64,000 bases of DNA, taken from positions 48,490 through 112,489 of the forward strand of contig JBBDYC010000008.1 in NCBI GenBank assembly GCA_040901985.1. The letters run 5' to 3'. The DNA comes from Gemmatimonadaceae bacterium. Lineage in GTDB: Bacteria; Gemmatimonadota; Gemmatimonadetes; Gemmatimonadales; Gemmatimonadaceae. A model generated the notes under the pieces. It searched no databases. It saw only the letters and a program-made list of their open reading frames with translations, and was not told the origin of the DNA. The position numbers were made by a program, and so were the translations under genes. Shown here piece by piece: positions 6,238-26,031 of this stretch; the stretch's first letter is position 1; each line of letters opens with the position of its first letter.

Positions 6238-6266
6238 TTGACAGTTTGACGCTCGCCGCCTATCAT
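6238..6266 (+). promoter_or_regulatory. Near-consensus sigma70 promoter
   Basis: TTGACA-17 nt-TATCAT. Confidence 0.75.
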
Positions 6267-6271
6267 CCCTG

Positions 6272-6337: not shown

Positions 6338-6349
6338 GCCAAGTTTTCT

Positions 6350-7992: not shown

Positions 7993-8018
7993 GAAAGATT
8001 TTTGTGTTTTCTATAGTT

Positions 8019-8077
8019 AATGTAATAATACATAAAGAAAAGCGCAATATCTATTCGTATTTTCCGAATACATAAAG
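8019..8077 (-). promoter_or_regulatory. Promoter/operator of Fic gene
   Basis: TTGCGC-17-TACATT on minus strand; direct repeat AATACATAAAG at 8027 and 8067. Confidence 0.5.
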
Positions 8078-8087
8078 CGCCCGGCGC

Positions 8088-9443: not shown

Positions 9444-9798
9444 TGGGATCCTTCTTATTCATCTTTCGCCGACGGACGGTACCGGCGCGCTGTCGTTGCT
9501 TGCCACTCAACTCGGCCAGCTCGAGTGGGGAGATCAGTGGCGCGGGGAGGAACGCGTCGAGGGCTTCGACGCGGCCGAGTGCGCGAAGGATGCGCACGAG
9601 TGTGTCGAGCGTGGGGTTCCTGCCGTGCTCGGCGCTTTCGATGGCGAAGCGGGAGAGGCCTGAGCGACTGGCGATCTCGGCGACGGTTCGGTTTTGTTGG
9701 AGGCGGTAGCGGCGGATGCGGTGGCCGAGTTCGGAGAGGATTTCGGTGGTGGTGGCGGTTGCGGAGATGTGGTGGGGTGGGGTGTCTTTGGTTGGCAT
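9436..9798 (-). CDS. hipB: HipB-like XRE HTH antitoxin
   Basis: HTH (IRRYRLQQN...PTLDTLVRILRALG) overlapping hipA start; AT-rich TATAACAG inverted repeats upstream. Confidence 0.85.
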   Translation of the reverse strand: MPTKDTPPHHISATATTTEILSELGHRIRRYRLQQNRTVAEIASRSGLSRFAIESAEHGRNPTLDTLVRILRALGRVEALDAFLPAPLISPLELAELSGKQRQRAGTVRRRKMNKKDPNA

Positions 9799-10197
9799 AC
9801 TATGAAAGTTATAACAGTTATACAGGCTGTCAAGAGACTTTAATATCTGTTATAAACTGTATTATATGTCAAATATAATGCGAGCCCGAACCGGTCTATC
9901 GCGCGCCGAACGCTTGCGGCCAGTTCGCTGCTGGCAGAACCAGAGCAAGGGTCACGAAGGAAATCGGCGGTATCTAGCTATGAAGTGCGGTAGCGGCGCG
10001 CCACCGCTGAGTCATCGACGCGTAGCACAAGTAGGAAGTGCCTGCACTCATCACTCGGCTCAGAGTGCCCGTGCAGTACGAAACGCGGTTGCTCAGCGCA
10101 GCATACCTTGTTGTCTACTACGGTGGGTGAGCTCCACACCTAAGCGACGCGACGCACCGCACCGCTACAACCGAGAGTCCATTGCGCTAGTCTCGGA

Positions 10198-11076
10198 TTA
10201 CCGCCTGCCTCGGCTCAACACCCAAGAGATGAATTCGTCTGAAAATACAACTCGACCCATCGAGAACCTGACTTGCGAGACGTATTTCTTGGAAGCGGAT
10301 TCACCGAGAACCGCCTCCACTACAACACTCTCTACCTTTCCAGCAAGAATCGAGGTTGCCGGCGAAACCTTATACACGGCCTTTTTCTCGCCTGCCCCCT
10401 GTGCATCCACGCGATCGTAATTCTGAATCTCGCGGAAAATACCAGCGAGGTGGCTCAGCCGAACGATGTTGGCGTCGTGAGTTTCAATGCTCTTGCGGAA
10501 CGCAAGTACCTCTTCGAGCGATATGCCAAAGCATTCCTGGTCGAAGACGTGTACGACGATTATCGGAACCTTGGCGGCGCTTTGCCACGCGCTGAGCGGC
10601 CCCAGGTCCTCTTCTTTGATGAAGATGTTTGGAGCCGTCGGCGCCTTAGCATGCTTTAGCGGCCTCTTGTCCAGCTGAGCTTTGGTCTTACGGACGTAAG
10701 CGCGCTGCTTCATTTCTGAAGCCTTGTACGGCGAGAACTCGACCTCAACAGCGCACCGTGCTTTCGCGAGGACGAAACTCAATTCCGATGAAAGCTTTGC
10801 GGTGGTTACTTCTCGAAGGTCATAATCTCTCGATCGCAGTGCATTATGTTCAGCTGGGCTCAAATGGGCGGCGTCAAAGACCAAGAGATCCGGTACCTTG
10901 GGCTCTCCCGCCACACTCCCGACCAAGTTGTCCGCGCTGACCCCGGAGGTTCCGAGCCTAACGGCAACAAAAGGCTTATGTAGGAACGCCTTGAGCAGTA
11001 TATCCTCGGCCCACTTGCTAGCCTTATAGCGATGCTCAAAATCAACTCCACGTCCTCGACGCTGCGGAGGCATCAC
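10198..11076 (-). CDS. Type II restriction endonuclease, AccI-like
   Basis: WAE, KVPDLLVF, AVEV, IKEEDL, VP...VF...FGIS pattern recalled from AccI family; lies behind C gene, divergent from MTase. Confidence 0.65.
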   Translation of the reverse strand: MMPPQRRGRGVDFEHRYKASKWAEDILLKAFLHKPFVAVRLGTSGVSADNLVGSVAGEPKVPDLLVFDAAHLSPAEHNALRSRDYDLREVTTAKLSSELSFVLAKARCAVEVEFSPYKASEMKQRAYVRKTKAQLDKRPLKHAKAPTAPNIFIKEEDLGPLSAWQSAAKVPIIVVHVFDQECFGISLEEVLAFRKSIETHDANIVRLSHLAGIFREIQNYDRVDAQGAGEKKAVYKVSPATSILAGKVESVVVEAVLGESASKKYVSQVRFSMGRVVFSDEFISWVLSRGRR

Positions 11077-11315
11077 ATGCCCTCCATTAAAGTGGCAACG
11101 GAGACGCGCAAGCCGTTCGCCACGGACGCGAGAACCGTGATGGTCGGGTTTCTAGCTCCCCGCTCCAGGCCGCTCAAATAGGTTACGTGTACTTGACTGC
11201 GGAAGGCGAGCTCCTCTTGAGAGAGGCCCTGATCCTTCCGAAGAATTCGAATCCGGCGACCAAGCTGCTTCGAGACGTCAGCAGACCTAGGGCGAGACCT
11301 TTTTCGTGTAGCCAT
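11073..11315 (-). CDS. R-M controller (C) protein, XRE HTH
   Basis: LSQEELAFRSQVHVTYLSGLERGARNPT; 4-nt overlap with REase. Confidence 0.85.
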   Translation of the reverse strand: MATRKRSRPRSADVSKQLGRRIRILRKDQGLSQEELAFRSQVHVTYLSGLERGARNPTITVLASVANGLRVSVATLMEGM

Positions 11316-11346
11316 TGGCTATGGATACGAAGACGCTATAGATTCC

Positions 11347-11362
11347 TCCACAGACTATGAGT
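11347..11362 (-). promoter_or_regulatory. C-box-like operator
   Basis: Minus strand ACTCATAGTCTGTGGA resembles the C.PvuII-type operator half. Confidence 0.55.
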
Positions 11363-12904
11363 AAACCATACGATGGCGATGCCATGAGCATACTCGAGAA
11401 GCTTCCTACAGGTGCAGCGCGTGAAGCGCTCAGAGAGAAGGGGCAGTTTTTCACACCCGGTTGGGTGGCGGACGCCATGGTCTCGTTTGCCGGGCGGGGC
11501 GCTAAAGCGCTGTACGACCCCGGCTTCGGCCTCGGAGCGTTCTCCTTGGCGACTGATCGAGTGTTTGGCGCTGCAGCACGAGATTACGCTGGATGTGACA
11601 CGGATCCGACCGTCTGGAGCCGCGCCCGAGATCACGGCGTAAGGGAGGACGTTCTCGAGAAAGTGAAGTGCGTGGACTTCTTCACTGTTGATCGTCTTCC
11701 TGATGGAACGTCCGTAGTGTCGAACCCCCCTTACGTCCGACATCATCGGCTCGAGACAAGCCAAAAGGAACACCTGCGTGCTCTCGGGACTCGCACGCTA
11801 GGGCGCGCCCTTGACGGGCGGACCGGAATTCATGCCTACTTCCTTATCCACGCGCTCAATCTCCTGCCGAAAGGGCAGCGGCTGGCATTCATCGTTCCTT
11901 CGGACATCTGCGAGGGTGTGTACGCGAAGCCGCTGTGGAAGTGGATAACGTCTGCCTACCGCGTTCAGGCGTTGGTGACCTTCTCACCCGAAGCCTCTCC
12001 GTTTCCCGGAGTGGACACAAACGCTGTCGTGCTACTGATCTCGAATGAGTCGCCCGGGAGCGAGTACTCGCTTGCTCGTGTGAAGACCTTCGGAACTGAC
12101 GCGCTGAGCGACTGGATCAAGAATGGACTGCCTGTGCACGACATGCCCGACCTAGTAGCGACGAGACGAACGATAAGTGACGGAGTCAGGGACGGCGTAT
12201 CGCGCTTTCCGCTCGTTGGAGCCCGCGAGAGCGGACTGGTTCTCGGTGACTTTGTGAAGGTTGTGCGTGGAATTGCGACCGGAGCAAATGAGTTCTTCTT
12301 TCTGACTAGCAAGCAGATCGAATCGCTTGGACTTCCCCAAAGTGTCTTAGTTCGCGCTGTGGGGCGTACGCGCGACATCACGAGTGAGGTCGTCTCGCCG
12401 CAGGACTTAGTCCGATTGGACGAGGAGGGGAGGCCCACATTCCTCCTATCTCTCGACGGCTCACGAAAGGAGGATCTATTGCCGGAAATTCGCAACTATC
12501 TTGCCATAGGAGAGGAGCAGCAACTCCACACCAGAGCCCTAATTGCGATGAGGAATCCGTGGTACAAGATGGAGAAGCGGGTTCCGCCTCCGTTCCTTTT
12601 CGCGTACCTCGGCCGCAGAGAAACGCGCTTTGTTGAGAACCGCGCACGACTCGTTCCGCTCACGTCATTTCTTTGCGTATACAATCGTCCGGAGACTGGA
12701 GCATCCGACGCTGAGCTTGGCCGGTTGCTAGCAGATCCGGAGCTACATCGTGCCTTGCCCTTCGTGGCGAAGTCGTACGGCGGCGGAGCGATCAAGCTCG
12801 AGCCACGGTCGTTAGAACGCGTGCCGTTGCTACCGGATCTCATAGTACGGCATAACTGGATCCTGAACGTCGAGCCAACATTGCAGCGAGACCTCGCAAT
12901 CTGA
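11357..12904 (+). CDS. N6-adenine DNA methyltransferase (gamma class)
   Basis: GQFFTP, YDPGFGLGAF (motif I), NPPY (motif IV), GIATGANEFF, KSYGGGAIKLEP; true start may be 11384. Confidence 0.9.
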   Translation: MSKPYDGDAMSILEKLPTGAAREALREKGQFFTPGWVADAMVSFAGRGAKALYDPGFGLGAFSLATDRVFGAAARDYAGCDTDPTVWSRARDHGVREDVLEKVKCVDFFTVDRLPDGTSVVSNPPYVRHHRLETSQKEHLRALGTRTLGRALDGRTGIHAYFLIHALNLLPKGQRLAFIVPSDICEGVYAKPLWKWITSAYRVQALVTFSPEASPFPGVDTNAVVLLISNESPGSEYSLARVKTFGTDALSDWIKNGLPVHDMPDLVATRRTISDGVRDGVSRFPLVGARESGLVLGDFVKVVRGIATGANEFFFLTSKQIESLGLPQSVLVRAVGRTRDITSEVVSPQDLVRLDEEGRPTFLLSLDGSRKEDLLPEIRNYLAIGEEQQLHTRALIAMRNPWYKMEKRVPPPFLFAYLGRRETRFVENRARLVPLTSFLCVYNRPETGASDAELGRLLADPELHRALPFVAKSYGGGAIKLEPRSLERVPLLPDLIVRHNWILNVEPTLQRDLAI

Positions 12905-12976: not shown

Positions 12977-13037
12977 GGATAGCGTGTGCTTCTGTTGCGA
13001 CCGCATCTGCGCTCGTCGGCAGCAAGCGTCTTTAGCA
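12977..13037 (-). repeat. Degenerate attC site
   Basis: TGCTAAA gacgc TTGCTGCCGAC...GTCGCAACAGAA gcacac GCTATCC; homologous to the attC at 23261. Confidence 0.6.
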
Positions 13038-13045
13038 CGCCGCGG

Positions 13046-13616
13046 GTATAAACCGAGGACATAGGTAACACTGCTAACGTGGCACGTAACCGGGGAGGTT
13101 GCGATGCCGTGGCGGAAGCTGAGACCTATGGACCAGAAGAAGGGGTTCGTGCGCGAGTACCGGCGCGGACTGTATACGCTGACGGAGCTTGCCGAGCGCT
13201 ACGATCTCTGCCGGAAGAGCGGCTATGCGCTCGTGCGCCGAGTGGACGAGCCAGGCATCGCGGGACTACAGCCGCAAAGCCGGCGACGGCACACGTCGCC
13301 GAACCGGACACCGGATTACGTCGCTACGATGCTCATCGAGGCGAAGCGGAAGTATCCAGCCTGGGGCCTAGAGATGCTGCTGCACTGGCTGCGACCACGG
13401 CATCGGGAGTTCCGCAACTGGCCCGCCAAAAGCACTTCGGTCGCGAACTTCAAGCGCGAGGCGATCCGGCCGCCGAAGGCCACGATGCGCTCGCAACAAC
13501 GGGCCTACGATGCGTTCCGCGCTGGGTACAACGCCGGCCGCCACGCCGATGACCGCAAGCAGAGCCTGCACTGGACGGACCTACGTTGTCCGCCCAGCGC
13601 ATTCTCTATGCTGTAG
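13046..13616 (+). mobile_element. IS481-family remnant with internally deleted transposase
   Basis: End sequence GTATAAACCGAGGACATAGGTAACA; MPW...LTELAERYDLCRKSGY HTH; DDE core largely missing. Confidence 0.7.
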
Positions 13617-13620
13617 CTGG

Positions 13621-14775
13621 TCAGCTCCCGCGGAAGTTGATCATTGAGTTCGCGAGCAAACTAGACCAATGGCGCTGACTCTTGCCCATCTTATTAGGAT
13701 TTCGACCAGCGTCGTCGCAAGCCTCGTCGGTGACGCGAAGGAGAGAGAGTCCGTGTCGGTCCCAGATGGCGTTGAGATTTAGGTCTTGGCTCACCCAACG
13801 GTACTTATCGTCTTCGCCAACCGTGACGAACTGTCGGAAACAGGCGAGTAGTGGAAGCAGCGCGGATGGGAGTGGCTGCGCGTCACTGGTTCGATCGTTG
13901 AACGGCAGGACTTTCCTACCATTGTGAACCCACTTGAGCCCACCAAACCGGCCGCTAGCGTCATTCCAGACACCCTGGGACGTGGCAGCGATGTGATCGT
14001 GGAGTTCAAGGATATCCGTGACTATTGGAGCCAGTTTCTCGACTCCACTCGAGTCGGCAACATAGTCCTTGAGTACCGCCTCCTTGCTTGAATAAGCCTT
14101 GACAGGTTGTGTCTGGTCGGGCTTTGGCGGGTACTTCGCGATATCGAACATCGAGAGCATCGCAACGACATCACGAGCCGTAAGCTCGCCTTCATCGTTC
14201 TCGCTCCAAGCAATTCGACCGCCGTAGGGTTTACTGGCGAGCACCGCTTTGAGCCAGTCGAACCGACCTTCGAGGTTCTTTAGGCTCATGAGCTTTACTG
14301 CAACCGATGTATTCAGTCCACCGGAAATCACATCGATGAGGTCGGGGCGCAGGTTGGTGAGGACCTCGAGCTTCACATACTGCTCAGGAAACGTCGCGGT
14401 AGTGTCCGCATTAGCCTCCGTAATAATCTTAGCAGTATGCCCCCCATCGACGATTCCGTCCATCATTCCATTCTCATCGTTCAAATGGAGCGTGTACTCG
14501 TCTTCACCGCGCTTTTCCACCCGTCGGGCAATGACCGTGATGCCCTTATTCTTCAGATGAAAAAGACCGTCGTTTGATTTCAGGCTATCGCGAATCTCTC
14601 TGTAAACTGAACGATCGGTGTTGGGTTGTCGTGCATTGGGATCCAAGCACTCAGCGAGCGCGGCAGGGAAGCTGTTCGCCTGCACAAACAAAATATGCCG
14701 GTCCACACCCTCATTCTGATAGGTGGGATCCGGCATCCGGCGGGCAAAGTTGGCCCGAATAACAAATGTCTTCAT
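13621..14775 (-). CDS. AIPR family protein
   Basis: FHLKNKGITVIA, GIVDGGHT, ISGGLNTSVAV motifs. Confidence 0.75.
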   Translation of the reverse strand: MKTFVIRANFARRMPDPTYQNEGVDRHILFVQANSFPAALAECLDPNARQPNTDRSVYREIRDSLKSNDGLFHLKNKGITVIARRVEKRGEDEYTLHLNDENGMMDGIVDGGHTAKIITEANADTTATFPEQYVKLEVLTNLRPDLIDVISGGLNTSVAVKLMSLKNLEGRFDWLKAVLASKPYGGRIAWSENDEGELTARDVVAMLSMFDIAKYPPKPDQTQPVKAYSSKEAVLKDYVADSSGVEKLAPIVTDILELHDHIAATSQGVWNDASGRFGGLKWVHNGRKVLPFNDRTSDAQPLPSALLPLLACFRQFVTVGEDDKYRWVSQDLNLNAIWDRHGLSLLRVTDEACDDAGRNPNKMGKSQRHWSSLLANSMINFRGS

Positions 14776-14860
14776 AAAAAATCTCCCGTCCAAACTGCCG
14801 GCGCTGCCGACGCTGGACTCAAGGTTGATCAATCCTGCCATCCGGCAGGTTGACGGCTCA

Positions 14861-14889
14861 AGTATAGGCCATCACCTCTGTGGTGTCAA
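14861..14889 (-). promoter_or_regulatory. Consensus-like sigma70 promoter for AIPR gene
   Basis: TTGACA-17 nt-TATACT on minus strand. Confidence 0.75.
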
Positions 14890-15216
14890 GTTCCAACGCG
14901 ACTCCGAGTCCCGGATTCAGTCATCCCCGCCGGTCCAGAGGAGGACTCGTATGCAGTCGGTGGCCATGGCCCCGGCAGCACGCCAACGGAGCCGAACGCT
15001 CCCCATCGGTCGTCCACTTCGCGGCTGAAAACAGGCTGCAATGGAATCTGGACATGCGAACGTTGGAGCGACCGCGCTACGGGTCGAGCGGAAGCAGACT
15101 TCATGCGTAAGCCCGGCGCTGAAGTGAACGCGGCTTTTCTCACTGCGAATCCCACGTTGGCGATTTCGAAGAACCAGTGTTCGATCAGGCACTCGTCGCG
15201 GAAACCAAACATACAG

Positions 15217-16653
15217 CTATTTCATAAGTCGGCGTCCGGCCGTTCTCCCAAGACCCAGGGCGACTGCAGTCTGGAGGTAAGCGCCCTCGGCATCAAACGT
15301 GATTGGCGGATCGAATCCGAGGAGCTCGCGAAAGCGCGCTTCCACGAACGTCCTGAGGGGAGCAAAACGAAAGGCTCCGCCGACGAATACGACGGAGAAG
15401 TGCCGACTAGCAACTCCGCTGTCGGCAGCGCACAACGTGATAAAGTTATTGAGGGTTGCCCCAAACCCTGACCTGCGAGACTGCATATCTAGCTCGAGCT
15501 CTAGCGATGGAGTGAGTGCGGACAAGAGACAGTGCTGCCTCTGGGAGAGGAGCTGCGAGTTCCGTTGGTCGTGAGCGGTGAGACCGAGAGTATTCGCCAC
15601 ATCGACGAACGTAATGTCCGCGAATTCATTGCCAGAAGAGAATTGGCGCTTTGCGTCCTCGAATTGAGCGTCCAATGTCACTTGTCGGGCCCTACCATCC
15701 AGGAGCTTGAATGCGTCACGCAGTCCCGAATTGCCACGCAAGATGCAGTTGGCCATCGCCTCGTTGAGATTCCGTCCACCAAATCGATGTGAACCGGAGA
15801 CGGTCTCGTTACCTACCTCTACAAGTCCCGAGCCAAGCCGATTCAGTTCGACCAACGACATATCCGTTGTACCGGCACCCGCGTCGATTATCATCAGCGC
15901 TTGGCTCTCACGATGTGGCTGGAGATCGATTCCTCGGGCCGCCGCGAGTGATTCAGGTTGGAACGTCACTTCAATATCCCTTGCACCAAACTCCCCTGCG
16001 AAATCGGCTTCGACCAGCGCCTGTCGTCGGCGCTCAGTGGCCAGCCGATATGACTCAGCCTCCGTCTTTGGAGAAATTGATGGAATGCCAATGACTACTT
16101 GGCTGATGGGTTCTCGGTACTCATCTGCGACCCGCCGTCCGACCGATCGAAATATCGCGGCGGTTGCGACGATCAGATCACTCTCTGATGGCCCGGGAGA
16201 TGCAATCTGGTAGAACTCGCGGCGCACTTCCGTGTTCTCGCTCTGGCTCATTGGATCCCACGTCGACTTGGTCTCCACCACCCGAGACCGGTACGTGGCA
16301 ATGTTGGGCTCGGAGAGCTCCGGTTTGAAGTGGGCGAGCAACATATCTGCTTCATGTCCCTCTCGGCACCAATTCTCGAAAGTGCCGTTGCGCTGCGCAC
16401 CTATACGTCGTTGCCAATACTCACCAAAGTCCTTCTGCGCTGGCTCAAATACGGACCGCACGTATCTTTTGGCCTCACCCGGTCGCCGAATGAGTGGTTC
16501 TAGGGCCGAGCTTCGGGCAAACCACACTTTCGAATTCACCAGTTCGTCAACGTTCTCGAGAATGATCAACCGGGGTCTTAGTAAGTCTGAACTGCGCGCG
16601 ACTGAGACTGCCGTCGTGGCTGTTCCAAAGTCAATTCCGACGGCTAGTGACAT
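15217..16653 (-). CDS. Hsp70/actin-fold ATPase (nucleotide-binding domain only)
   Basis: VGIDFGTATT, QPESLAAA, IIDAGAGTTD, FGGRNLN, FVGGAFR; no substrate-binding domain. Confidence 0.8.
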   Translation of the reverse strand: MSLAVGIDFGTATTAVSVARSSDLLRPRLIILENVDELVNSKVWFARSSALEPLIRRPGEAKRYVRSVFEPAQKDFGEYWQRRIGAQRNGTFENWCREGHEADMLLAHFKPELSEPNIATYRSRVVETKSTWDPMSQSENTEVRREFYQIASPGPSESDLIVATAAIFRSVGRRVADEYREPISQVVIGIPSISPKTEAESYRLATERRRQALVEADFAGEFGARDIEVTFQPESLAAARGIDLQPHRESQALMIIDAGAGTTDMSLVELNRLGSGLVEVGNETVSGSHRFGGRNLNEAMANCILRGNSGLRDAFKLLDGRARQVTLDAQFEDAKRQFSSGNEFADITFVDVANTLGLTAHDQRNSQLLSQRQHCLLSALTPSLELELDMQSRRSGFGATLNNFITLCAADSGVASRHFSVVFVGGAFRFAPLRTFVEARFRELLGFDPPITFDAEGAYLQTAVALGLGRTAGRRLMK

Positions 16654-18613
16654 GCTCTTGAGCCTCCTCAATCATATTGACGATCTGAGTAATGAACTCG
16701 CCAGCGGCAACGGTCTCCCGCTGCACGACTGCAAGCGTCGAGGACACCTCGTTCTGCACGCGCTCTGCAGCCCAGGCCGTAGTCTCGGTTGCCGCAGACC
16801 GGACGTACTCATGGACTCTTGCCGCAACTTCGTCAACGACGGGGTCAGCCAGCTTCTCGCTGAGTCCGAACGGTTTGTGTGATTTATGAGCATCCCGTAT
16901 CGCAACATGCTTCCAGACCGCACGCTTCGGCCCATCGTTCGCAACCAGCTCCTCTAGAGTGGATGATCCAAGCTCGCTCTTGTTAGTCGCCACGAAGCTA
17001 CACAGCACCTCAAAAAAGTAAGGCGAATCCGCTGCGTATTGCTCTACGCGCAACCGCGCTTCGTTCAGTTCGGTCGGTAACTGCTCAATGAGCGCTCGCT
17101 CTACTGAAGAGCGCGCCGCGCCTCCTACTAGCGCAGTCTGTGAAAGCTGCTGCACTAGCATCGCGAAGTCTGTGTTACCGACTTGTGTTGCGGACTCCGT
17201 GGTCTCGCTCGCCTCTGCCGGCGACTCCGGGAGTCTCTTCGGGCTCGCGATCTCCACGGCATCGACCAGTCGTGCCGTGTCAATGCTCAGCCAAGGCACC
17301 GGATTCTTCTCGAGCCTCCTCAATTCTGCAGCGAGCATGGCTACTAGCCGTCGGAGGCGAGTCGCTTCTTGTTGCGCTGAGGCAAGCCGATCTGCGTGTT
17401 GGGCACCTTCGAGTATCTGCGCGACGCGCGAACTCACTTGGACAAGCTCACGGCGCTCGATCACCCCCTGCAGTCCCTGCCAAAGGCGAATAGCCTCGTT
17501 GGCGTCGGCGGATTCCAGCAACTCAAACGGAGCGGCAGCAGCATCAAGCTTGGACAAACTGACGGCGCTACCATCGCGCGCGGCAACCTTCTGAAATTCA
17601 AGGCGGTCGGCAGGCGCAAGCGTGCGGGCACCAAGGTTTTGAAGAACAGCCTTAAGTGCGCTACTCGTCAGTTGTGGCGTGTTCACGGCCAACAGTGCCA
17701 ACAGTGCGGCTGCTGACTGTTTCTGAAGTTCCGCCAGTTGCTTCGCGCTCAGCTTGTTGGACATTGAGAGCCGAACAGCGTCTGCCCATACGTTGGCGGC
17801 TTCGGCTGGAACGCGTGCCTTGAGAAGGTGCGAGAACAACGGGCCAGCCACGACCTTCTTTCTTGCGGCAGAATTGAAGATAGTGTGGAGGACTTGCTGG
17901 CGAAAATCATTTAGCTTCCGGAATTCGCCCGCCACACCGCCCGTCGCTTTGGTTGGCGCCACGCCTGTCGCCGCAACCTTTGCGATTGCCCGCAGGGCTG
18001 CCGTCTCCTTCGGATTCGCCCCGGCATTTGGAGATAGGCTGAGAACTAGGTGCCGATAGCAGAGTTCCTTTGCCAGCGGGCACCCTAGCGCCGAAAGGGC
18101 TGCTGCGGAGTCGTGAGTGATTCCAACGTCGCGCCAAACAGCATGACTGTCGAACCCGTTGGTATTCGGAAGCCTCAACGTCACGAAAGTACTGAAGATC
18201 GCGGGAACGCTGTTCTCTACTTCGTCGTTCGATAGCGGCCAATTGCGTCGGCGCACGCGATTGGAAATCTGTTCCTCCCATTTGCCACGAGATACCTGCA
18301 ATCCCATCGCCATAGCAACAAGCTGCCGGCCGAGCGGATGCGCATTCATCGCAACACGAGCACTATCATTCTTGGTGAGATTCAGCAGCCTAGGGTCAAG
18401 CAAAGCGTCTAATGCCAAGAAGCTGCCGATGCCACCCAGGAACTCAGCGTTCAAAAAGGCAGCCCGCAGGCCTGCGGGGCTCTTGATAGAGCCTATCAGA
18501 GCCTTCCTTGCTTGCTGGTAGGCCGACCTTGTGAGGGGGTTCGCATCGGTGGCCGTAAGAAGCTGCTCAAGGGCTTGACGCGTGTTCGTTGGCGAAATCG
18601 GCTTTCTATTCAT
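16631..18613 (-). CDS. Uncharacterised 660-aa alpha-helical/coiled-coil protein
   Basis: Long ORF with AGGAG RBS; overlaps the Hsp70-like gene; Ala/Leu/Glu/Gln-rich heptads. Confidence 0.75.
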   Translation of the reverse strand: MNRKPISPTNTRQALEQLLTATDANPLTRSAYQQARKALIGSIKSPAGLRAAFLNAEFLGGIGSFLALDALLDPRLLNLTKNDSARVAMNAHPLGRQLVAMAMGLQVSRGKWEEQISNRVRRRNWPLSNDEVENSVPAIFSTFVTLRLPNTNGFDSHAVWRDVGITHDSAAALSALGCPLAKELCYRHLVLSLSPNAGANPKETAALRAIAKVAATGVAPTKATGGVAGEFRKLNDFRQQVLHTIFNSAARKKVVAGPLFSHLLKARVPAEAANVWADAVRLSMSNKLSAKQLAELQKQSAAALLALLAVNTPQLTSSALKAVLQNLGARTLAPADRLEFQKVAARDGSAVSLSKLDAAAAPFELLESADANEAIRLWQGLQGVIERRELVQVSSRVAQILEGAQHADRLASAQQEATRLRRLVAMLAAELRRLEKNPVPWLSIDTARLVDAVEIASPKRLPESPAEASETTESATQVGNTDFAMLVQQLSQTALVGGAARSSVERALIEQLPTELNEARLRVEQYAADSPYFFEVLCSFVATNKSELGSSTLEELVANDGPKRAVWKHVAIRDAHKSHKPFGLSEKLADPVVDEVAARVHEYVRSAATETTAWAAERVQNEVSSTLAVVQRETVAAGEFITQIVNMIEEAQEHVTSRRN

Positions 18614-18627
18614 TCCGAAAGCTCCTA

Positions 18628-18824
18628 CTCGAACGCTGGATTCCGCAAGCAGCCGAGAGCCCCCGCCGTCCCGATCCGGCTCAGACTCTAGATCATGCTC
18701 CTCCAGGGCCTTGAGGATCGTGGCAATACCTCCGCGATGTACTTCGATCCACGATCATTGGGAAAACGATGACCGCCGCCAGCACGCCGTGCGTCAAGCC
18801 CGTCGCCAGCAAGCGTCGTTAACC
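18628..18824 (-). repeat. attC-like site (long, possibly composite)
   Basis: GGTTAAC (contains upstream gene stop) gacgc TTGCTGGCGAC ... GCGGAA tccagc GTTCGAG. Confidence 0.55.
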
Positions 18825-19481
18825 CGGATCTCGAATGCGCGCCACAAGCCAAACCTCCGTGTCGTTTGGCAGCCGATGCGCCACGAGCCACACGTGACAA
18901 CGCTTTCGAACGCGAAGCGCGCGACTCTTGTAAACTGAGAAAGGAAGGAAGCAGGTCACCTCGGCTGCGTAACCGTAATCCGGATCGGCGTCGGCACGAA
19001 GGCGCAACTCAACGTGCGGCTCACTCACGAGCTTGCCTAAGAATCCACGGCTGACCGGATTCTCTGGATAGCTAAGACGCTTGAAGAAGTTCACCTGCCG
19101 CGCCTCTGATATGATTTGACCCTCTATTTCCTCCGAGTCTCCTTCAGGTACGACCGAGACAACCGTCTCTTTCCCGGTCTCGGAAAAGATGTCCCTTTGA
19201 AGTCGGTCGAGCACGGCTGGCGGCACGTCCACGCCACGCTCCACGGCCGCGGCTTCGATGAGTCGCTTGGTCTCTTGGGCGGAGACCCCGCGAGCGCGGA
19301 ACTGACGAATCTGGTAAGGGACGCACGTGCGCGCGTGAAGCGGCCACGGTTCACCCGGACTCTCAAAGAATACTCGCGAACCGCAGCTGCAAGAGAAGAA
19401 GTAGACGCGCGCGGTGCAGTCTTGGCATGTCGTACGCCACATTCTCGAAGAGCAACCCGAGGCATGATTTGGAACGCCCAC
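18819..19481 (-). CDS. Cassette protein with Cys/His-rich Zn-binding N-terminus
   Basis: HASGC...CQDC...CSCG...PWPLHARTC. Confidence 0.65.
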   Translation of the reverse strand: MGVPNHASGCSSRMWRTTCQDCTARVYFFSCSCGSRVFFESPGEPWPLHARTCVPYQIRQFRARGVSAQETKRLIEAAAVERGVDVPPAVLDRLQRDIFSETGKETVVSVVPEGDSEEIEGQIISEARQVNFFKRLSYPENPVSRGFLGKLVSEPHVELRLRADADPDYGYAAEVTCFLPFSVYKSRALRVRKRCHVWLVAHRLPNDTEVWLVARIRDPG

Positions 19482-19501
19482 TCAGTTGGCCCTCTAGATC
19501 G

Positions 19502-19601
19502 GTGTAGCGTTTACTTCCGCTGCGAGCGCTTTCACAAAATGGTGCCGTGGCCCCACAACCGCCACCTCAGCTGCGTTCGTCGGCAGCAAGGGTCGCTATG
19601 T
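19502..19601 (-). repeat. attC site with variant cores
   Basis: ACATAGC gaccc TTGCTGCCGACGAACGC...GCGCTCGCAGCGGAA gtaaac GCTACAC. Confidence 0.7.
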
Positions 19602-20531
19602 CGCCGCGAGCCATCGCGCTACTTCGGTGATCACGTGAACTGCCGGAGGCGCGCCAAAGGCGGCCAGCCACTCGTCAGCCGAACCGTGAACGAGGACACC
19701 CTGTCTCGGCAAGCAGAGCGCGAGCCGAGTGAAGCCAAACGGTGCATGGCCGTGGCTGCGGCTCCTGTCAAATGCGAAGTAACAGATCAGTTGAGCGACC
19801 GCCTTGGCCTGAGCACCGGCTTGGGTACACTTGAGCTCCACGAGCGTGTCCCCGGAGATCCAGTCTCCATCGCTTGCGATTACTGGACCGATGCCGCCGA
19901 AGCGCGGGTTGGGGAAGAAGTCACCGCCTATGCGAGTGTCGCGAACGTTTCGCAGTAGCGCTGCAATCTCCGCAAGGCTTTGTGGTGGAATGATGCGCTC
20001 AAACCACAAGCGAGCCGCGCGCGGAGAAATATGTCTTGGCAGCAATGAACTATTGATATCGCTCAGAGGCCGATAGCCCCGCCTCACAGGATCGAGCATT
20101 CCCAAGACTGCGAGCCATCCGAGGTAGGCTTCGCTATGAAAGTGTCCGCGACTGGGCAAGCGATAGCGGGCGATCGCATCTGCGATTTGCCGCGAGGCCG
20201 GGCCTCGACCGCGCAACCAAGTGATGGCAGGTTGCGCGATGTCGACACCAGACAAGTGGAGAACACCTCGATCTACTGCTTGGCCCACAACCGAGTAGAG
20301 AGATTGCGACCTCGTCGCTTCAGATGCTGGTACTGCGAGCCCAGTGCGAGCGGCGCAATTGATAGCTGCAATGGTGCTGCGAGACTGGGGAAGGAGCTGA
20401 CGCGTAAACTCAGGGGTTGCGCGCAAGAAGTCCGAAAGTGGCGCCCGCGCTGGCTTCTTCTGCGGAGCATCGAGTCTCCATTGCTTAACCTCCCGCGCAG
20501 GGAGTGAAAGCTGGCTAAGTGCGATGCGCAT
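19596..20531 (-). CDS. Cassette protein with C-terminal PD-(D/E)XK nuclease domain
   Basis: NPRFG...SDGDWISGDTLVELKC...QLICY. Confidence 0.7.
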   Translation of the reverse strand: MRIALSQLSLPAREVKQWRLDAPQKKPARAPLSDFLRATPEFTRQLLPQSRSTIAAINCAARTGLAVPASEATRSQSLYSVVGQAVDRGVLHLSGVDIAQPAITWLRGRGPASRQIADAIARYRLPSRGHFHSEAYLGWLAVLGMLDPVRRGYRPLSDINSSLLPRHISPRAARLWFERIIPPQSLAEIAALLRNVRDTRIGGDFFPNPRFGGIGPVIASDGDWISGDTLVELKCTQAGAQAKAVAQLICYFAFDRSRSHGHAPFGFTRLALCLPRQGVLVHGSADEWLAAFGAPPAVHVITEVARWLAAT

Positions 20532-20549
20532 CCGACCTCAAGTCAGTCC

Positions 20550-20684
20550 ACATCGCATTTGCCGGTGCTGTGGACGCTCATTCAAAAAGACTCTGGCGGC
20601 GTGGCCGCAACCAGCCCGGGTCATCACGGCCACCCCGTCCAACCCATCATTACGCGCGGCCGTCGGCAGAAAGCGTCGCTATCC
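20550..20684 (-). repeat. Degenerate attC site
   Basis: GGATAGC gacgc TTTCTGCCGACGGCCGC...GCGTCCACAGCAC...GCGATGT. Confidence 0.6.
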
Positions 20685-21266
20685 ATTCGCGGGCCGAATC
20701 GCAGCTGGGTGTGGAGTTCCAGCGGTCTGCCCCACGAGGGAAAAGAGCATTCCGCCGCGAACGGTAAGACGCTGCAGAGTTCGCGGATTGGACTCAATGG
20801 AAGCATGAAAGCGCTCCCAGCCGCGAACAACGGCATTCGCGAGATCCTCCAGTTGTACAGCAACCGCCTCCTTCTCGTCGCTCACGGCAATGAGCCGCCT
20901 AAGTGCCGGTAGAGAGCCGCTCCCCAATGCGTAGGAGATTGGGCGAGCCTTTCCCTTGCGCTGAAGTGCAGAATAGGCAGAGAACGAATGCAGAACTCCG
21001 CACCGTGCGGCATACAGATCAAGTGCCGAGCAGTCGAGTCCCGACTGGGGCAGCAGGTACTCGTCAACCCACCTTACGAAATCTTTCTTGGTGACGTCGC
21101 CACCGTGTTCAACAGAAAGCCACGCGGCCGCATCGATCGTCGAGTAGAGAACGACGAGAAAGGATTGAATGTGTCCTTTATCGAGGAGAACTCTGAGGCT
21201 CGCGAACGACTGGTCGAATGCACTGCGAATTGAGAGCGCGCTTAGCGCGGCAAGGTCCTGTGCCAT
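20679..21266 (-). CDS. Cassette protein, HEPN-like
   Basis: ATG immediately after attC core; helical, LYAARCGVLH (Rx4H). Confidence 0.65.
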   Translation of the reverse strand: MAQDLAALSALSIRSAFDQSFASLRVLLDKGHIQSFLVVLYSTIDAAAWLSVEHGGDVTKKDFVRWVDEYLLPQSGLDCSALDLYAARCGVLHSFSAYSALQRKGKARPISYALGSGSLPALRRLIAVSDEKEAVAVQLEDLANAVVRGWERFHASIESNPRTLQRLTVRGGMLFSLVGQTAGTPHPAAIRPANG

Positions 21267-21400
21267 AGATAACGTTTGGTTGTGCTGCAGCCGATCAAAC
21301 AACATGCGGGACGGCGGCCACGCCGACCCCTGCCTTACAATAGAGCGTGGCCGCCGTCCCGCTACATTAGCCCGGCTGTCTGCACCAACCACCGTTAGGC
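21267..21400 (-). repeat. attC site (intact)
   Basis: GCCTAAC ggtgg TTGGTGCAGACAGCCG...TCGGCTGCAGCACAA ccaaac GTTATCT. Confidence 0.85.
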
Positions 21401-21413
21401 TGGGCGGGCCACG

Positions 21414-22163
21414 CTATAGGGCCTTGAAGTAGGTCGCGCCATCGAGCTGTCGGAAAAGGAACGAGATGAAACTGAGGATATCAAGAGCATCCTCCTTCAG
21501 AATCGGCCAGTCGAGTGCGGGCTCGTGCGCGGTCGGATTGCGAATGGCCTGCATCAGGCCGGCCGAAAGGAACTTCACGCCGTCCTGCACATTGCGATCT
21601 GTGTCCGTCACGCACGCAGTGATCTTTAGGACTCCCTTCTCCGCACCCAGTACGTCGAGCATCAACGACTGGCCATCTTTGGAGCTCTTGGACTTTCGCT
21701 TTACTTCCACGTTGTAGACTTTCGCGGACTCGAATACCGCGTGGAAATAGTTGCCCTGGAGAAACAGCTTGCGCGAGTGTTGCACCACGGTGGAGTGAAA
21801 TCGACGACTCGCGAACAGCTCTAGATTCTCTTTGTTCACGATGGAGGCACCGATACCCGCCTCGCTGAGGATGCGCTGGACCGCTTCGCGTTCGGCTTCG
21901 GCCGATATCTTGAGGCAGAACTGAACGAGGAGCCTGTCTCGCTCCTCACCGGTCAGTGGCTGTTTCGCCAGAGTCAGAATCCAGTCGTGCACCAGCTGCG
22001 CGCGCAGTGACGTAATCGCGTCGTTGACGAACGACTGCTTCTGAAACCGAAAGAGTGCGCCCGCAACGCGATTAATCTCGTTGACTGTGGACGACCACTT
22101 GAAGATGTCTCCGACTTCAACGGCGATCGCGCGATAGTTCGGAGCCACTCTCTCTCCGTTCAC
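21414..22163 (-). CDS. TIGR02391/Ymh-family (HEPN-related) cassette protein
   Basis: GNYFHAVFESAK...DGQSLM...IRNPTAHEP...DALDILSFIS; GTG start downstream of attC. Confidence 0.8.
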   Translation of the reverse strand: MNGERVAPNYRAIAVEVGDIFKWSSTVNEINRVAGALFRFQKQSFVNDAITSLRAQLVHDWILTLAKQPLTGEERDRLLVQFCLKISAEAEREAVQRILSEAGIGASIVNKENLELFASRRFHSTVVQHSRKLFLQGNYFHAVFESAKVYNVEVKRKSKSSKDGQSLMLDVLGAEKGVLKITACVTDTDRNVQDGVKFLSAGLMQAIRNPTAHEPALDWPILKEDALDILSFISFLFRQLDGATYFKAL

Positions 22164-22180
22164 GGTTAAGGTGGACCTCA

Positions 22181-22280
22181 GCCGAATGTGTGCTTCTGCT
22201 GCGAGCGCTTCCATAAAGTGGAGCAGTGGCCCCACAACCGCTACCGCACCTGCGCTTGTCGGCAGCAACCCTCGCTATGC
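22181..22280 (-). repeat. attC site with variant cores
   Basis: GCATAGC gaggg TTGCTGCCGACAAGCGC...GCGCTCGCAGCAGAA gcacac ATTCGGC. Confidence 0.7.
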
Positions 22281-22321
22281 AGCCGCGACGAGAGGTCATG
22301 TACTAGGTTGGCAGGCTACGG

Positions 22322-23218
22322 CTACGGGACAAGCAGGAAGTTGAACAAGTAAATGCCGTAGTTGTCCTGCACCCAACAATCGACGTGACACGCGCGGCCG
22401 ACAGGAACAGAAAGTGGGACCCCTGAGGAATGCCGAAAGTCGCGAAGGTCCTTGCTGAGAGTTTGTCGAGCCGAAAGCCGAGGAATCACAGCGTAGAATG
22501 CGTCTACGAAGGCCCAGCTATTGCGCGGCTGGTCGCCCACAAAGAGCCCTAAGCGGACCGACTGCATGTCGGTGTCTCCGAGGTTTTCGAGGCTGATTGA
22601 GTCCGTTGTCAGGGCAACGGCCATGTGGACTCGATGCTCAACCCCTTCGTGCGGGCGTAGATTGCGCAGTGGTCGGGCGTCAATCGAAAATGTTCCGGTC
22701 AGTGGAGGAATAGCAGGAAACGCCAGACCTGCAGAAGCCTTTGGCGCTTGAGCGAACGAGATACCCCTTTCCCTCGCCTTTTTGAAAGCCTCTCGTAGCG
22801 TGTCAAGTGCGAACGCGTTGGAGCGTTGCTGATACTCCCTCGCCAAGCGCTGCTTAAGCTCCTCAAGCCCATCGGCAATCTGCGGAAGTTCGGAAGCCCC
22901 TTTCAAGAGAGCATACGCAGCTGGGATGCCGACTGCGACTATAAGATACGCCTCGATGACAAATGAGCCCTTATACGCATCTCCAATCCTTACCTTAGGC
23001 CGCTCTTCAGGCGAAAGCCCGACTCTGGCAAAGTACTCGTCTGCAATCTCAGAGACAGTCGCCACGAAGAGCTGCTTCCACTTGCCAGAGTACTCCATAA
23101 GAAAGTTGTCGTCACGGGCAAACCACTCGTCAGCTGCATGGTCGGTCATCCAGCGGCGAACTTCATCCGTGAAGGCGAGTTCCGCGCGGAGATTGGCGAT
23201 GACTGTCTCGCGTTCCAT
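22322..23218 (-). CDS. Hypothetical cassette protein with central hydrophobic helix
   Basis: 298-aa ORF filling the space between two attC sites. Confidence 0.7.
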   Translation of the reverse strand: MERETVIANLRAELAFTDEVRRWMTDHAADEWFARDDNFLMEYSGKWKQLFVATVSEIADEYFARVGLSPEERPKVRIGDAYKGSFVIEAYLIVAVGIPAAYALLKGASELPQIADGLEELKQRLAREYQQRSNAFALDTLREAFKKARERGISFAQAPKASAGLAFPAIPPLTGTFSIDARPLRNLRPHEGVEHRVHMAVALTTDSISLENLGDTDMQSVRLGLFVGDQPRNSWAFVDAFYAVIPRLSARQTLSKDLRDFRHSSGVPLSVPVGRACHVDCWVQDNYGIYLFNFLLVP

Positions 23219-23260
23219 GGTCGGTGGTCTGAGGTGATGACACCAAGCGAGCTAGAGTCC

Positions 23261-23327
23261 GCATAACGTGTGCTCCTTCTGCAACCGCTACCGCACCCGC
23301 GCTTGTCGGCAGCAAGCGTCGCTAGCT
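23261..23327 (-). repeat. Short attC site
   Basis: AGCTAGC gacgc TTGCTGCCGAC...GCAGAA...cacac GTTATGC. Confidence 0.7.
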
Positions 23328-24386
23328 GGTGCGGCGGTCGCGCATCCAGCCGGCCACCGGACGAACAAGCCGGCCGGACGGAATCGAGGAGACCTCAAGA
23401 GTCTCAAGATTGTAGTCGTGTGCTGAACGAAGGTCGATCCAGACACCCTTGGGGCTCAGCGCAAGGCGAACATCGTAGGGACGTTCGCTAAAGAGGATGA
23501 CAGTACCAAGAATGTCTGTGGACTCGTCTGCGTCCCAGGTGGCGGCAATGAAGTGGTGCCTGCCAGCACGCTCACCCGCGTGACGATTCTGGTCCTCGGA
23601 TCTGGGTTCCATCGGCCGGACGAACGCACGCATGTCTCCCTCTCCGTAACGAATGAAGCACCGAATGGGATTGAAGTCAGGCGAGTATACAAATGTCGGG
23701 TACTCCTTAGCCGTTACCTTTGCCAAGTAATTGAATGCGATTTTTGCGACCGCACGCCGCACAATTGCATCGACAGTCTGTCTCACCTCGAGCTGGAACT
23801 CGAAGCCGTCTGGCGGTGGCGTAAACTGCTCACCAGGACGAAACGTGAGACCGTGCGTCGCCAAGTGCTCGATCAGTCGGTCCTTTGCTCCCGGATGCTG
23901 GACGGACCAGAATAGATCCTTCCTTTCAACATCAATGTCCGGTACAGACTTCGGATCTGTGGTGACGAGTTCGGCCTCAGTCATGCAAATAAACCCGCCG
24001 CTCTTGAGCCGGAAACGGACCTGCGGGCGTAGCACAAACCCTATTCGACCGTCGGAACTGCCCGGCGCTAGCTCAAGATAGAGCGGACCCAGCGGCGAAT
24101 CGGGAGGCAGCTGAACGGTGACTCGGGACTTCCTAATCTCGTAGGCCTCGTCCGCGGGTTTGAGTCCGAGTGTAAGCCGCAGCATCGCCTCGACCGAGTC
24201 CCGTGTGAGGACCAAGTCTAGGGTCCTGCCAAACTCTGTGTTGCACGTTGCGCAAACCCTTGGGTCCTCGGAAGGAGTCAGCGTGAGAGCTCCCTGAAAG
24301 CCACCGAACGCTGCGTGGAGAACGTGCTCCCGATTGAACTGTTCGAGAGGCTTCGTTTCGAGACAGTAGATGCAGAGCGCCTTCAG
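23322..24386 (-). CDS. HNH endonuclease cassette protein
   Basis: Frame stays open upstream of the track ORF: CIYC...NREHVLHAAFGG...VCATCNTEFG; GGAG + CTG start at 24386; AVAKIAFNY. Confidence 0.75.
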   Translation of the reverse strand: MKALCIYCLETKPLEQFNREHVLHAAFGGFQGALTLTPSEDPRVCATCNTEFGRTLDLVLTRDSVEAMLRLTLGLKPADEAYEIRKSRVTVQLPPDSPLGPLYLELAPGSSDGRIGFVLRPQVRFRLKSGGFICMTEAELVTTDPKSVPDIDVERKDLFWSVQHPGAKDRLIEHLATHGLTFRPGEQFTPPPDGFEFQLEVRQTVDAIVRRAVAKIAFNYLAKVTAKEYPTFVYSPDFNPIRCFIRYGEGDMRAFVRPMEPRSEDQNRHAGERAGRHHFIAATWDADESTDILGTVILFSERPYDVRLALSPKGVWIDLRSAHDYNLETLEVSSIPSGRLVRPVAGWMRDRRTS

Positions 24387-24414
24387 TGTTGGCTCCAGTG
24401 ACGATGCTGCATCC

Positions 24415-24510
24415 AGCTAACGTGGGATTTTGCTGCGGACACTCCAATAAGATGCGGGCGCGAAGCGCCAGCCTCAATAGAGTGGCCGTCAGTACCAAGC
24501 GGCGTTAGCT
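24415..24510 (-). repeat. attC site (intact)
   Basis: AGCTAAC ... GTTAGCT with internal CTGACGGCCAC/GTGTCCGCAG stem; near-copy of 25382-25478. Confidence 0.9.
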
Positions 24511-25377
24511 CGCGACTCGGCTCGATCCATCCGTGGCCATAAGCACCAGAGGAAGGTTCAGTCGAGAGACGACGAGGTAATGGAGTATCAAGTCAGCGCC
24601 ATTCAAGAAGTCGTCCCGCTCGTTCTCTGAGAGTTCGTCCTTGAGTGCAAGTGCAGATCGCTTGTCGACTAGATGCCTAGTCTCCCTTCGATTGTTACTG
24701 ATGTCGAAGAACCAGGGCAATGCGCGAGGGAGGGATGCGATTACCGCCGGAGGCATCGCCGCCTGTTTCGCCGTTAGATCCATGCCTGGCAGCAACTCGC
24801 GCCCCAGCTCGAGGCCTTTGCTGAGCAAGAGAGGAGCGAGCGAGGGATCGTGAGTGGTCAGAGCGCCATAATGGAGCTGACCGAGTTCCGCCGTGGTTGT
24901 ATCAGCACTTCCGATCGCCTCGAGAGCCCGCAGCGTGTCGTCGAGCGGAGTTGCGGGCAGCACTCTCGTGCGCGGACGCGACGCAATCCCGTCGAGTAGC
25001 TCCCAGTCGTCTGCCGCGATGAGTTCTTTGCTGGTTGCGTCGAGCGACCAAGCGCGCGGCACTTGTTGCGGCTGAATAAGGTATCGAAACGTCTTTCCAT
25101 TGAGCGGCCAACCGGTTGCGTAGTTGAAAGCGCGGTCAACATCTCGGGCGAGGTCACAGGCGCGCATGAACACGATACCGGGATCATCACCTTCCTCAAT
25201 CGCGCCGTCCAGCTGAATCTGGTAGGCTGGACCTGAGATGCTCTCGTGCCAAGTGACGGACTCAGACAGTGTCCACACTCCGCGAGTCTCCGAGTGCGGT
25301 GCGAGCTTGGTGTCGACCTCAACGCGAATCGGGTGCGAATGAAGCGACAACAACCGAGGCGGAATAGTTCGCTCCAA
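24505..25377 (-). CDS. Cassette protein, possibly HEPN-like
   Basis: Stop codon lies inside attC R''; C-terminal helical region with RRETRH (Rx4H). Confidence 0.6.
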   Translation of the reverse strand: MERTIPPRLLSLHSHPIRVEVDTKLAPHSETRGVWTLSESVTWHESISGPAYQIQLDGAIEEGDDPGIVFMRACDLARDVDRAFNYATGWPLNGKTFRYLIQPQQVPRAWSLDATSKELIAADDWELLDGIASRPRTRVLPATPLDDTLRALEAIGSADTTTAELGQLHYGALTTHDPSLAPLLLSKGLELGRELLPGMDLTAKQAAMPPAVIASLPRALPWFFDISNNRRETRHLVDKRSALALKDELSENERDDFLNGADLILHYLVVSRLNLPLVLMATDGSSRVAS

Positions 25378-25381
25378 GTCG

Positions 25382-25478
25382 AGCTAACGTGGGATTGTGC
25401 TGCGGACACTCTAGTAAAATGCAGCGTCGCAGGCGCTGCTACCATAGCGTGGCCGTCAGCCACCACGCGTCGTTATCC
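25382..25478 (-). repeat. attC site (intact)
   Basis: GGATAAC ... GTTAGCT; stem with two extrahelical bases. Confidence 0.9.
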
Positions 25479-26003
25479 TGCACGCACATCAGTCGATACG
25501 GGGAGGCTCAGTCGGAGCCAGCGGCGCGCGCAAGCGCTTTCCCCGGCGTCTATGAGTGAAGCGCGAAATAGCTGAGTCCGGGGCTTGGCGAGTCTAAAGA
25601 GCGGCTCGCTCGTCGGGAGATACGCATAGAACTCACGCACGGATTCGGCCGGGACTTGCGCTGTAGCGAAGCGGCTATACAGCGGGAGCGTGGCAACGTG
25701 CCCAAGAACTCCTGACAGCACCAGCGCTTTGAGCTCGACACCAATCCGTCCCTGGTTCTGGACGCGCAAGGTAATCGTGGGCGCCGGCGGACCCACGAAT
25801 GTGTCAGTCGACGGGTCGTAGCTTGAGGACGGATGTTGAGACCCAAATCCTACGGAGAAATGCAGTCGCGGCACGTCCCGGAGGCGCTGTGCGCGTCCAA
25901 CAACGATCGTCGCGAGGATTCCAAGGAGCCCGACAACCGCAGTGAGCATCTCGCCCGCAGAAATCTCTTCGACAATTGCGGACAAGAGGCCGGTCTCTAC
26001 CAC
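25473..26003 (-). CDS. First cassette: single-TM hypothetical protein
   Basis: AAGGAG RBS + GTG; hydrophobic LTAVVGLLGILATIVVG followed by beta-rich domain. Confidence 0.6.
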   Translation of the reverse strand: MVETGLLSAIVEEISAGEMLTAVVGLLGILATIVVGRAQRLRDVPRLHFSVGFGSQHPSSSYDPSTDTFVGPPAPTITLRVQNQGRIGVELKALVLSGVLGHVATLPLYSRFATAQVPAESVREFYAYLPTSEPLFRLAKPRTQLFRASLIDAGESACARRWLRLSLPVSTDVRAG

Positions 26004-26031
26004 CTGAGTCTCCTTGTCTGGATAACGAGTG

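Follow-up and report, generated by a model that had tools for sequence, protein, structure and literature searches.

In the stretch of 64,000 nucleotides (nt) that we analysed (the window, to which all coordinates refer), taken from contig JBBDYC010000008.1 of a Gemmatimonadaceae bacterium (GCA_040901985.1), two overlapping genes encode a predicted helical protein without a recognised family (gene A) and a nucleotide-binding domain (NBD) of the Hsp70 type that stands alone (gene B). From the fold and residues of B, its family, the gene order and the neighbourhood, we estimate a probability of about 0.5 that B and the helical protein form the core of a rare and mobile defence module of three genes, with B as its ATP switch, and that the copy in the window is one without the helicase. 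The two genes and the signal that joins them are as follows.

18613-16631, - strand: gene A, open reading frame (ORF) of 660 amino acids (aa), likely partner of B
16653-15217, - strand: gene B, 478 aa from the ATG at 16653, Hsp70-type NBD only
16656..16669, - strand: ribosome-binding site of B read from the sequence, GAGGAGG, 9 nt before the ATG and within the 3' end of A

Both A and B are real genes. An initial annotation of this DNA had described a divergent Hsp70/actin-fold NBD overlapping a helical orphan, and we indeed found the two genes on the same strand with an overlap of 23 nt; because A also contains, at its 3' end, the ribosome-binding site of B, translational coupling is likely, judging from the sequence. 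The GC content of the pair is 57-58% and its GC at third codon positions (GC3) is 0.60-0.62, compared with a GC3 of 0.90-0.92 in sufB and sufD and 68-71% GC in the contigs of the genome, so both genes are foreign. No sigma70-like promoter was found above A. A search of sequencing runs recovered the pair in one run, possibly of the source sample, with no RNA run listed and no joint across the pair.

Gene B encodes a stand-alone Hsp70-type NBD

Pfam gave partial HSP70 and MreB matches for B, and its AlphaFold2 model, built on a 14-sequence alignment, reached a pLDDT of 85.6 and a pTM of 0.86. When this model was searched with Foldseek, the NBDs of DnaK and BiP came first, in agreement with the earlier identification of a stand-alone Hsp70-type NBD. 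In a wide structural search BiP was at the top (Z 28.8, root-mean-square deviation 3.2, 352 aligned), Hsp110, Ssb1 and Sse1 were also among the first matches, and BeeR and MreB had Z scores of 27.5 and 25.3.

The phosphate-1 (DFGTATT) and phosphate-2 (DAGAGTTD) motifs, the insertion in lobe I and the missing substrate domain, all claimed previously, were confirmed. With the methionine encoded at 16653 taken as residue 1, D8, K110, D257, E332, K335, G426 and R429 of B align with D9, K71, D194, E267, K270, G342 and R345 of the host DnaK, and E234 aligns with the NEPT glutamate in hhalign, with a shift of two columns in MAFFT. All of the motifs of the Hsp70 NBD test (phosphate-1, K70, E171, phosphate-2 and adenosine) are present, and B keeps all ATPase residues that are invariant across its family. 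We infer from these residues that B probably binds and hydrolyses ATP. The chain stops at the last helix of the NBD, with neither a DVLLLD-type linker nor a substrate-binding domain, and lobe I in the model carries a helical insert (about residues 69-97) and an extended beta-hairpin (about residues 120-150). The observation that no DnaJ or GrpE gene lies nearby also held, as there is none on the window contig; the host carries its own DnaK, DnaJ and GrpE elsewhere in the genome, where two DnaJ matches and one GrpE match sit on contigs C9 and C16.

Gene B belongs to a rare family

To describe the relatives of B, we searched 1.84 billion representative proteins and obtained 30 listed hits, 14 of them at E<=1e-30 including B itself. 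Among the 13 non-self matches, 11 are 471-480 aa long and 31-34% identical to B over their full length, and the remaining two are cut at the N terminus. Two further members, P0035 and the copy at locus L054, bring the other full-length members to 13, with lengths of 471-482 aa. In a quick tree of 35 rows, the 13 rows from this family formed a single clade (SH-aLRT 99). This clade is a rare, tight, unnamed and undescribed family of Hsp70-type NBDs without the substrate half. Two divergent Hsp70-fold proteins with C-terminal extensions, P0027 (1559 aa) and P0031 (624 aa), have the lysine-motif region and the GR loop of the family in common with it, and may represent sister groups.

None of three overlapping samples (family, order and phylum), each with 400 other genomes, contained the family. 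It had no match in 72,556 plasmids, and the viral contigs searched gave only one weak match, to a canonical DnaK. In a scan of genome contigs, which was dominated by a generic motif, none of the 44 loci among the matches listed held a member. Two of 41 metagenome loci (L053 and L054) hold members of the family; the other 39 are weak matches, and those that were translated are generic Hsp70/MreB-type proteins.

The best NCBIfam model across the family is YegD (NF008673), which matches 14 of 14 members, and hhalign gave B a probability of 98.2% with Escherichia coli YegD and 95.6% with the host DnaK. YegD likewise consists of the NBD only, according to the available part of a 2026 review (PMC13580251), and some family members have a similar C-terminal GLARWA ending. 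These similarities would fit a YegD-like accessory Hsp70 domain in protein quality control or the response to stress, for example a nucleotide-exchange partner of the host DnaK, a role that has been proposed for NBD-only paralogues, with A as its adaptor and with no role against phage. However, B scored 31.5 bits against a cut-off of 331, the best family member reached E 8e-12, and in the quick tree the position relative to YegD is a fork among long branches with no supported grouping. In addition, the family is very patchy, low in GC and mobile, and a proteostasis factor is not expected to be linked to a helicase and defence genes, as described below for its relatives. We therefore consider this explanation quite unlikely.

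The fold also raises the scenario that B is an actin-like polymer or a DNA-handling ATPase, with the hairpin as a clamp and A as an adaptor, serving the maintenance or movement of a mobile element in the manner of ParM/ParR. BeeR and MreB indeed follow closely behind the Hsp70 NBDs in the structural search, MreB models weakly match 14 of 14 family members (37.5 against a cut-off of 365.75), the first two thirds of A are basic (net charge by thirds +9, +10 and -12), and the related loci encode a helicase partner. Nevertheless, K110, the lobe-II E-x-x-K and the GG-x-x-R signatures follow Hsp70, the plasmid and viral searches gave nothing beyond the canonical DnaK match, and the counterparts of A at L053 and L054 are, unlike A, not basic; this scenario seems improbable to us.

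A helical gene precedes B at three loci

The evidence for gene linkage comes from three loci with readable context, namely the window, L053 and L054, the last of which ends 2 kb past B. In all three, a same-strand ORF of 660-741 aa without a recognised family lies directly upstream of B, and the junctions are the 23-nt overlap in the window and an ATGA overlap and a 26-nt gap in the other two. At both L053 and L054 the order is a UvrD-type helicase, then the helical orphan (712 or about 700 aa), then B. Thus, of the earlier proposal that A and B co-occur as a two-gene system, the pairing of a helical gene with B stands at every locus, while the two-gene composition has to be revised, since the two related loci have the helicase first. 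As these loci hold three genes, the two-gene form in the window may be reduced or broken, and the copy may be incomplete.

The previously noted orphan status of A was upheld, since no family was found for it in Pfam, PADLOC, NCBIfam or PHROGs. A homologue search returned only A itself among 8000 scored candidates, and there was no usable match in Atlas (TM under 0.5). A single-sequence model predicts an all-helix protein with a pLDDT of 40, which is unreliable and too poor to search with; long coiled-coil-like helices lie near residues 395-436 and 613-659 in this low-confidence model, and the protein has no membrane helix.

The L053 and L054 partners are homologous to each other (E 3e-8, 22% identity over 443 aa), and the same holds for the two helicases, whose two parts are 45% and 39% identical. 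A and these partners agree in size, position and coiled-coil layout. The last 200, 300 and 450 residues of A were globally aligned to the partners with anchored ends. Among control ORFs, 18 of 1087, 10 of 1087 and 8 of 816, respectively, scored as high or higher, as did 6, 1 and 1 of the 200 shuffles. These weak hints make it likely, but unproven, that A is homologous to the two partners. A profile search with both partners found only the L053 partner, and the helicase query, run without a positive control, had no match in 401 genomes at E<=1e-60.

The first 100 residues of the helicases form a conserved domain with invariant His, Arg, Lys and Tyr, which also starts a Thiothrix plasmid protein (L102). 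It was located at the following positions.

L053, 3215-3530: helicase N-terminal domain
L054, 3276-3600: helicase N-terminal domain
L102, 5271-5579: the same domain

A RelE-like look of this domain was not confirmed and no library matched it, so that a toxin role for the domain would be no more than a resemblance.

The family lies among defence genes

All three loci lie among defence genes. At L054 the module adjoins BREX pglW (PglW match E 2e-149). At L053 it is followed by genes for ParB, SNF2, ParB, DGQHR and radical SAM proteins, and neighbour genes at L053 and L054 are 68% and 50% identical to their best relatives in the family of the window's host. In the window, cassettes and neighbours match defence models for AIPR, PD-(D/E)XK, HEPN-like/PD-Lambda-3B, a type II methyltransferase with its controller, and HipA. 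Because the B family members at these three loci are always found among defence genes with a fixed helical gene, it is likely, on the basis of this neighbourhood, that the helical gene and B belong to an anti-phage module. The genes downstream at L053 are arranged as one operon.

L053, 9836-16600: operon of ParB-like, small unknown, SNF2, ParB-like, DGQHR (DpdB-like) and radical SAM genes

This operon looks like an unnamed DNA-modification defence system.

How the module might work

We propose that B would be a dedicated ATP switch acting on the helical protein encoded ahead of it. The helical protein would bind to B, possibly through the hairpin specific to the family, and so replace the lost substrate domain and the co-chaperones; its fast-changing N-terminal part may sense a signal of phage or of stress. 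Nucleotide switching would then release or load the helicase, the likely output, whose conserved N-terminal domain could be the toxic or nucleic-acid-cutting part. The pair in the window would have ended up between scraps of insertion sequences (IS), where the far end of an integron array has eroded, either as a streamlined two-gene version or as an orphaned remainder, and A may have taken over the output role.

A number of findings weigh against the defence-module reading. The context of the family is readable at three loci only, and a location in a defence island would equally fit selfish or stress genes. A tblastn search of this genome, which is 99.97% complete, gave no hit to the helicase, and the helicase gene of L054 has an in-frame stop, so that only one of the three loci looks complete; the N-terminal domain of the helicase matched nothing in Pfam, NCBIfam, PHROGs or PDB sequences, nor one RelE. 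A has no recognisable effector motif, and direct comparisons with the L053 and L054 partners gave BLASTP E values of 0.2-0.3, an hhalign probability of 0.4% and a rank of 749 among 753 with a two-sequence hidden Markov model (HMM) of the partners; helical, alanine-rich proteins such as A are also prone to align spuriously. Finally, B deviates from the family consensus at several conserved positions and is the most divergent member, with the earliest and longest branch in the quick tree (end branch 1.01).

The boldest form of the proposal is that a bare Hsp70 NBD with a unique hairpin serves as an immune nucleotide switch, through which a nuclease-helicase is loaded or released by a helical sensor that diversifies rapidly, and that the minimal two-gene form captured by the integron works without the helicase. 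In this full form we hold it to be unlikely. If true, it would give the first tested example in which Hsp70 works as a switch in immunity and not as a chaperone, together with a tractable answer to the role of NBD-only Hsp70 derivatives. Since the module is small (two or three genes), its ATPase residues are intact and its partner is fixed, both questions are directly testable. The reach of such an answer would be limited by the rarity of the module and by the chance that the window copy is incomplete.

The integron array and the borders of the pair

The initial annotation had placed A and B in a discrete cassette of about 3.4 kb that is closed by an attC site, and this did not stand. We built an attC matrix from sites of this genome outside the window contig; on the window it identified nine left arms of 18-28 bits (next best 8.4) and eight other right arms of 13-33 bits. 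The features around the pair are the following.

12977..26026, - strand: attC array with nine attC left arms and no adjacent integrase, eroded towards the distal end that holds A and B
18802..18824, - strand: attC left arm (R'' and L'') closing the upstream 220-aa cassette, 23.5 bits, right arm missing or heavily eroded
18628..18653, - strand: questionable right arm of an attC, with GTTCGAG at its end and the AGGAG of A behind it, -3.4 bits, the best in 18600-18830
15158..15203, - strand: IS3-family transposase remnant containing ATCGAAC, 46 bases matching IS3 transposase DNA in 97 plasmid records
13621..14889, - strand: gene of the AIPR family, probably an independent unit, with a sigma70-like promoter of its own (TTGACA-17-TATACT at 14889-14861)
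13045..13616, + strand: truncated element of the IS481 family, comprising the transposase N terminus and a left end that starts at about 13045 (aligned with two related elements)

The sequence GTTCGAG with AGGAG is present before A, as had been reported, but its identity as an attC right arm is doubtful: it scores -3.4 bits, where the 99th percentile of the background is -7.3, and the 197-nt attC span above A folds no better than shuffles (z +1.8). The proposed matching R'' behind the pair, ATCGAAC (15179-15185), was rejected, as it has no L'' box, scores -6.9 bits as a left arm and lies within the IS3 remnant. Two other candidates also failed. A 182-nt CGCCAAC...GTTGGCG hairpin at 15162-14981 gave arms of -5.9 to -16.8 in either orientation, and a CCAC-GTTAGCA at 13078, considered as half of a split attC starting an empty cassette, lies inside the left end of the IS481 element.

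A history in which the pair is a complete, true cassette from GTTCGAG to ATCGAAC, whose closing attC was later overwritten, has some points in its favour. The two cores are complementary at 6 of 7 positions, compared with 4-7 of 7 in true cassettes, which supports the initial annotation; the GTT lies 21 nt above the start of A; the pair sits between attC sites of the array; and elsewhere in this genome an array has attC sites with an interval of 4.3 kb between them. However, ATCGAAC belongs to IS3 coding sequence without an L'' box, the upstream right arm is weak, and there are no attC arms above 11 bits in L053 or L054, all of which renders this history highly improbable. The attC array that contains the A-B pair is genuine, but the pair itself is at most a putative cassette.

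The IS3 remnant begins 14 nt beyond the stop codon of B, and the AIPR gene, the truncated IS481 element and the last attC follow downstream. A, B and the AIPR gene thus make up a 5.7-kb IS-scarred block, bounded by the IS481 end, in the eroded part of the array. These scars fit the view that the pair is a dead or dying fragment of a three-gene unit, cut by IS3/IS481-driven rearrangement and without an output, whatever the function of the intact module, as do the missing right arm of the upstream attC, the erosion of the adjacent attC sites, the absence of the helicase, the lack of a sigma70-like promoter above A and the long branch of B. On the other hand, both reading frames run uninterrupted (660 and 478 aa), their ribosome-binding sites are clean and the two are likely coupled, every family-invariant ATPase residue of B is kept, and B is about 32% identical to all of its relatives, which indicates a long divergence under constraint; the two-gene state may therefore be old. 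We regard a dead fragment as an unlikely explanation, and continue to prefer a module whose window copy is without the helicase.

Further observations concern the array and its surroundings. It begins 5 nt past the stop codon of sufS, and its eight upstream cassettes are mostly orphans. Decay follows a gradient: at distal sites the cores have changed from AAC to AGC and from GTT to GCT, and there are internal deletions (61-67 nt). Two integron integrases are located on other contigs of this genome, and attC sites of one family occur on at least eight other contigs (C3, C7, C9, C11, C14, C16, C17 and C19), many of them at contig ends; the 4.3-kb interval mentioned above belongs to the array on C9. 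The cassette protein of about 200 aa at window 18819-19481 (- strand) has a cysteine-rich N terminus (CxxC ... CxC ... HxxxC) and no family match, and is possibly a zinc ribbon fused to an OB-like part. A defence island at window 3419-12904 adjoins the array and also contains HipA with a helix-turn-helix (HTH), two genes that are Fic-like by motif, and the following genes.

11357-12904, + strand: type II methyltransferase, pointing away from the controller HTH and from a gene resembling a nuclease
10198-11076, - strand: nuclease-like gene, weak AccI match only

Comparison with known systems

The pair had been described as matching no recognised named system, and no named system was matched in our comparisons. 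No description of this module was found in the literature, where subscription papers, bioRxiv supplements and PADLOC candidate tables fall outside the search and may bear on novelty; PMC11980606 contains no UvrD, Hsp70 or DnaK. The sole PADLOC model touching B and its relatives is PDC-M61 component B, through the phosphate-2 region, with only 35-86 of 588 model positions covered (E 4e-6 to 8e-4). PDC-M61A had no match in the neighbours scanned, PDC-M61B was not found in 201 genomes in a search without a positive control, and in the accessible part of 10.1101/2024.04.30.591980 PDC-M61B is named without annotation. Integrons hold reduced defence systems (10.1101/2024.07.02.601686), and the portion of that source seen mentions neither Hsp70 nor DnaK.

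With the DnaK-DnaJ-GrpE chaperone, B has the NBD fold and the catalytic residues in common. Unlike DnaK, it has no DVLLLD-type linker, no substrate domain and no co-chaperone genes nearby, and no DnaJ or GrpE was present among the ORFs scanned in L053 and L054. YegD (E. coli b2069) is closer, as an Hsp70 NBD alone with no linker, basket or lid (PMC13580251, in its available text) and with similar motifs around the phosphate-2 loop and the C terminus. B differs from it in reaching one tenth of the cut-off score, in its lobe-I insertion and in having the K70-equivalent lysine in the DnaK position, and the B family differs in its dedicated upstream helical gene and helicase and in being mobile and rare.

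Two groups of predicted systems also resemble the module, as far as the accessible parts of their descriptions go. In type III CoCoNuT systems, CnuD combines an Hsp70-like NBD and substrate-binding domain (SBD) with HEAT-like and coiled-coil regions and degenerate nucleotide motifs, alongside McrB/McrC homologues, and figure legends name an SF1 helicase with an RNase-toxin-like domain (PMC11090510). CnuD/CnuCD and the A-B module are alike in joining an Hsp70-like domain with helical or coiled-coil regions in a predicted defence system. Unlike CnuD, B has no SBD and no fused repeats and its ATPase residues are intact, and scans of the neighbours in the window, L053 and the truncated L054 showed neither a McrB-like GTPase nor McrC/DUF2357. 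Conflict systems of the GAP1-N2 and DO-GTPase kinds contain HSP70, which at times lacks the peptide-binding domain, as B does, together with TRAFAC GTPases, tubulin, and GrpE or DnaJ-FNIII genes (PMC7159879); none of these genes was seen at the loci scanned.

The module is closest to YegD, CoCoNuT CnuD and the Hsp70-bearing GTPase conflict systems and matches none of them. In what is available of these sources, Hsp70-fold switches are predicted, not tested, in conflict and defence systems (PMC11090510, PMC7159879), Hsp70-like NTPases are restated as predicted immune switches in a preprint (10.64898/2026.10.19.760177), and the functions of bacterial DnaK derivatives without a substrate domain are called an open question (PMC13580251). 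If A and B work as proposed, they would bear both on the function of NBD-only proteins and on the predicted Hsp70 switches of defence systems.

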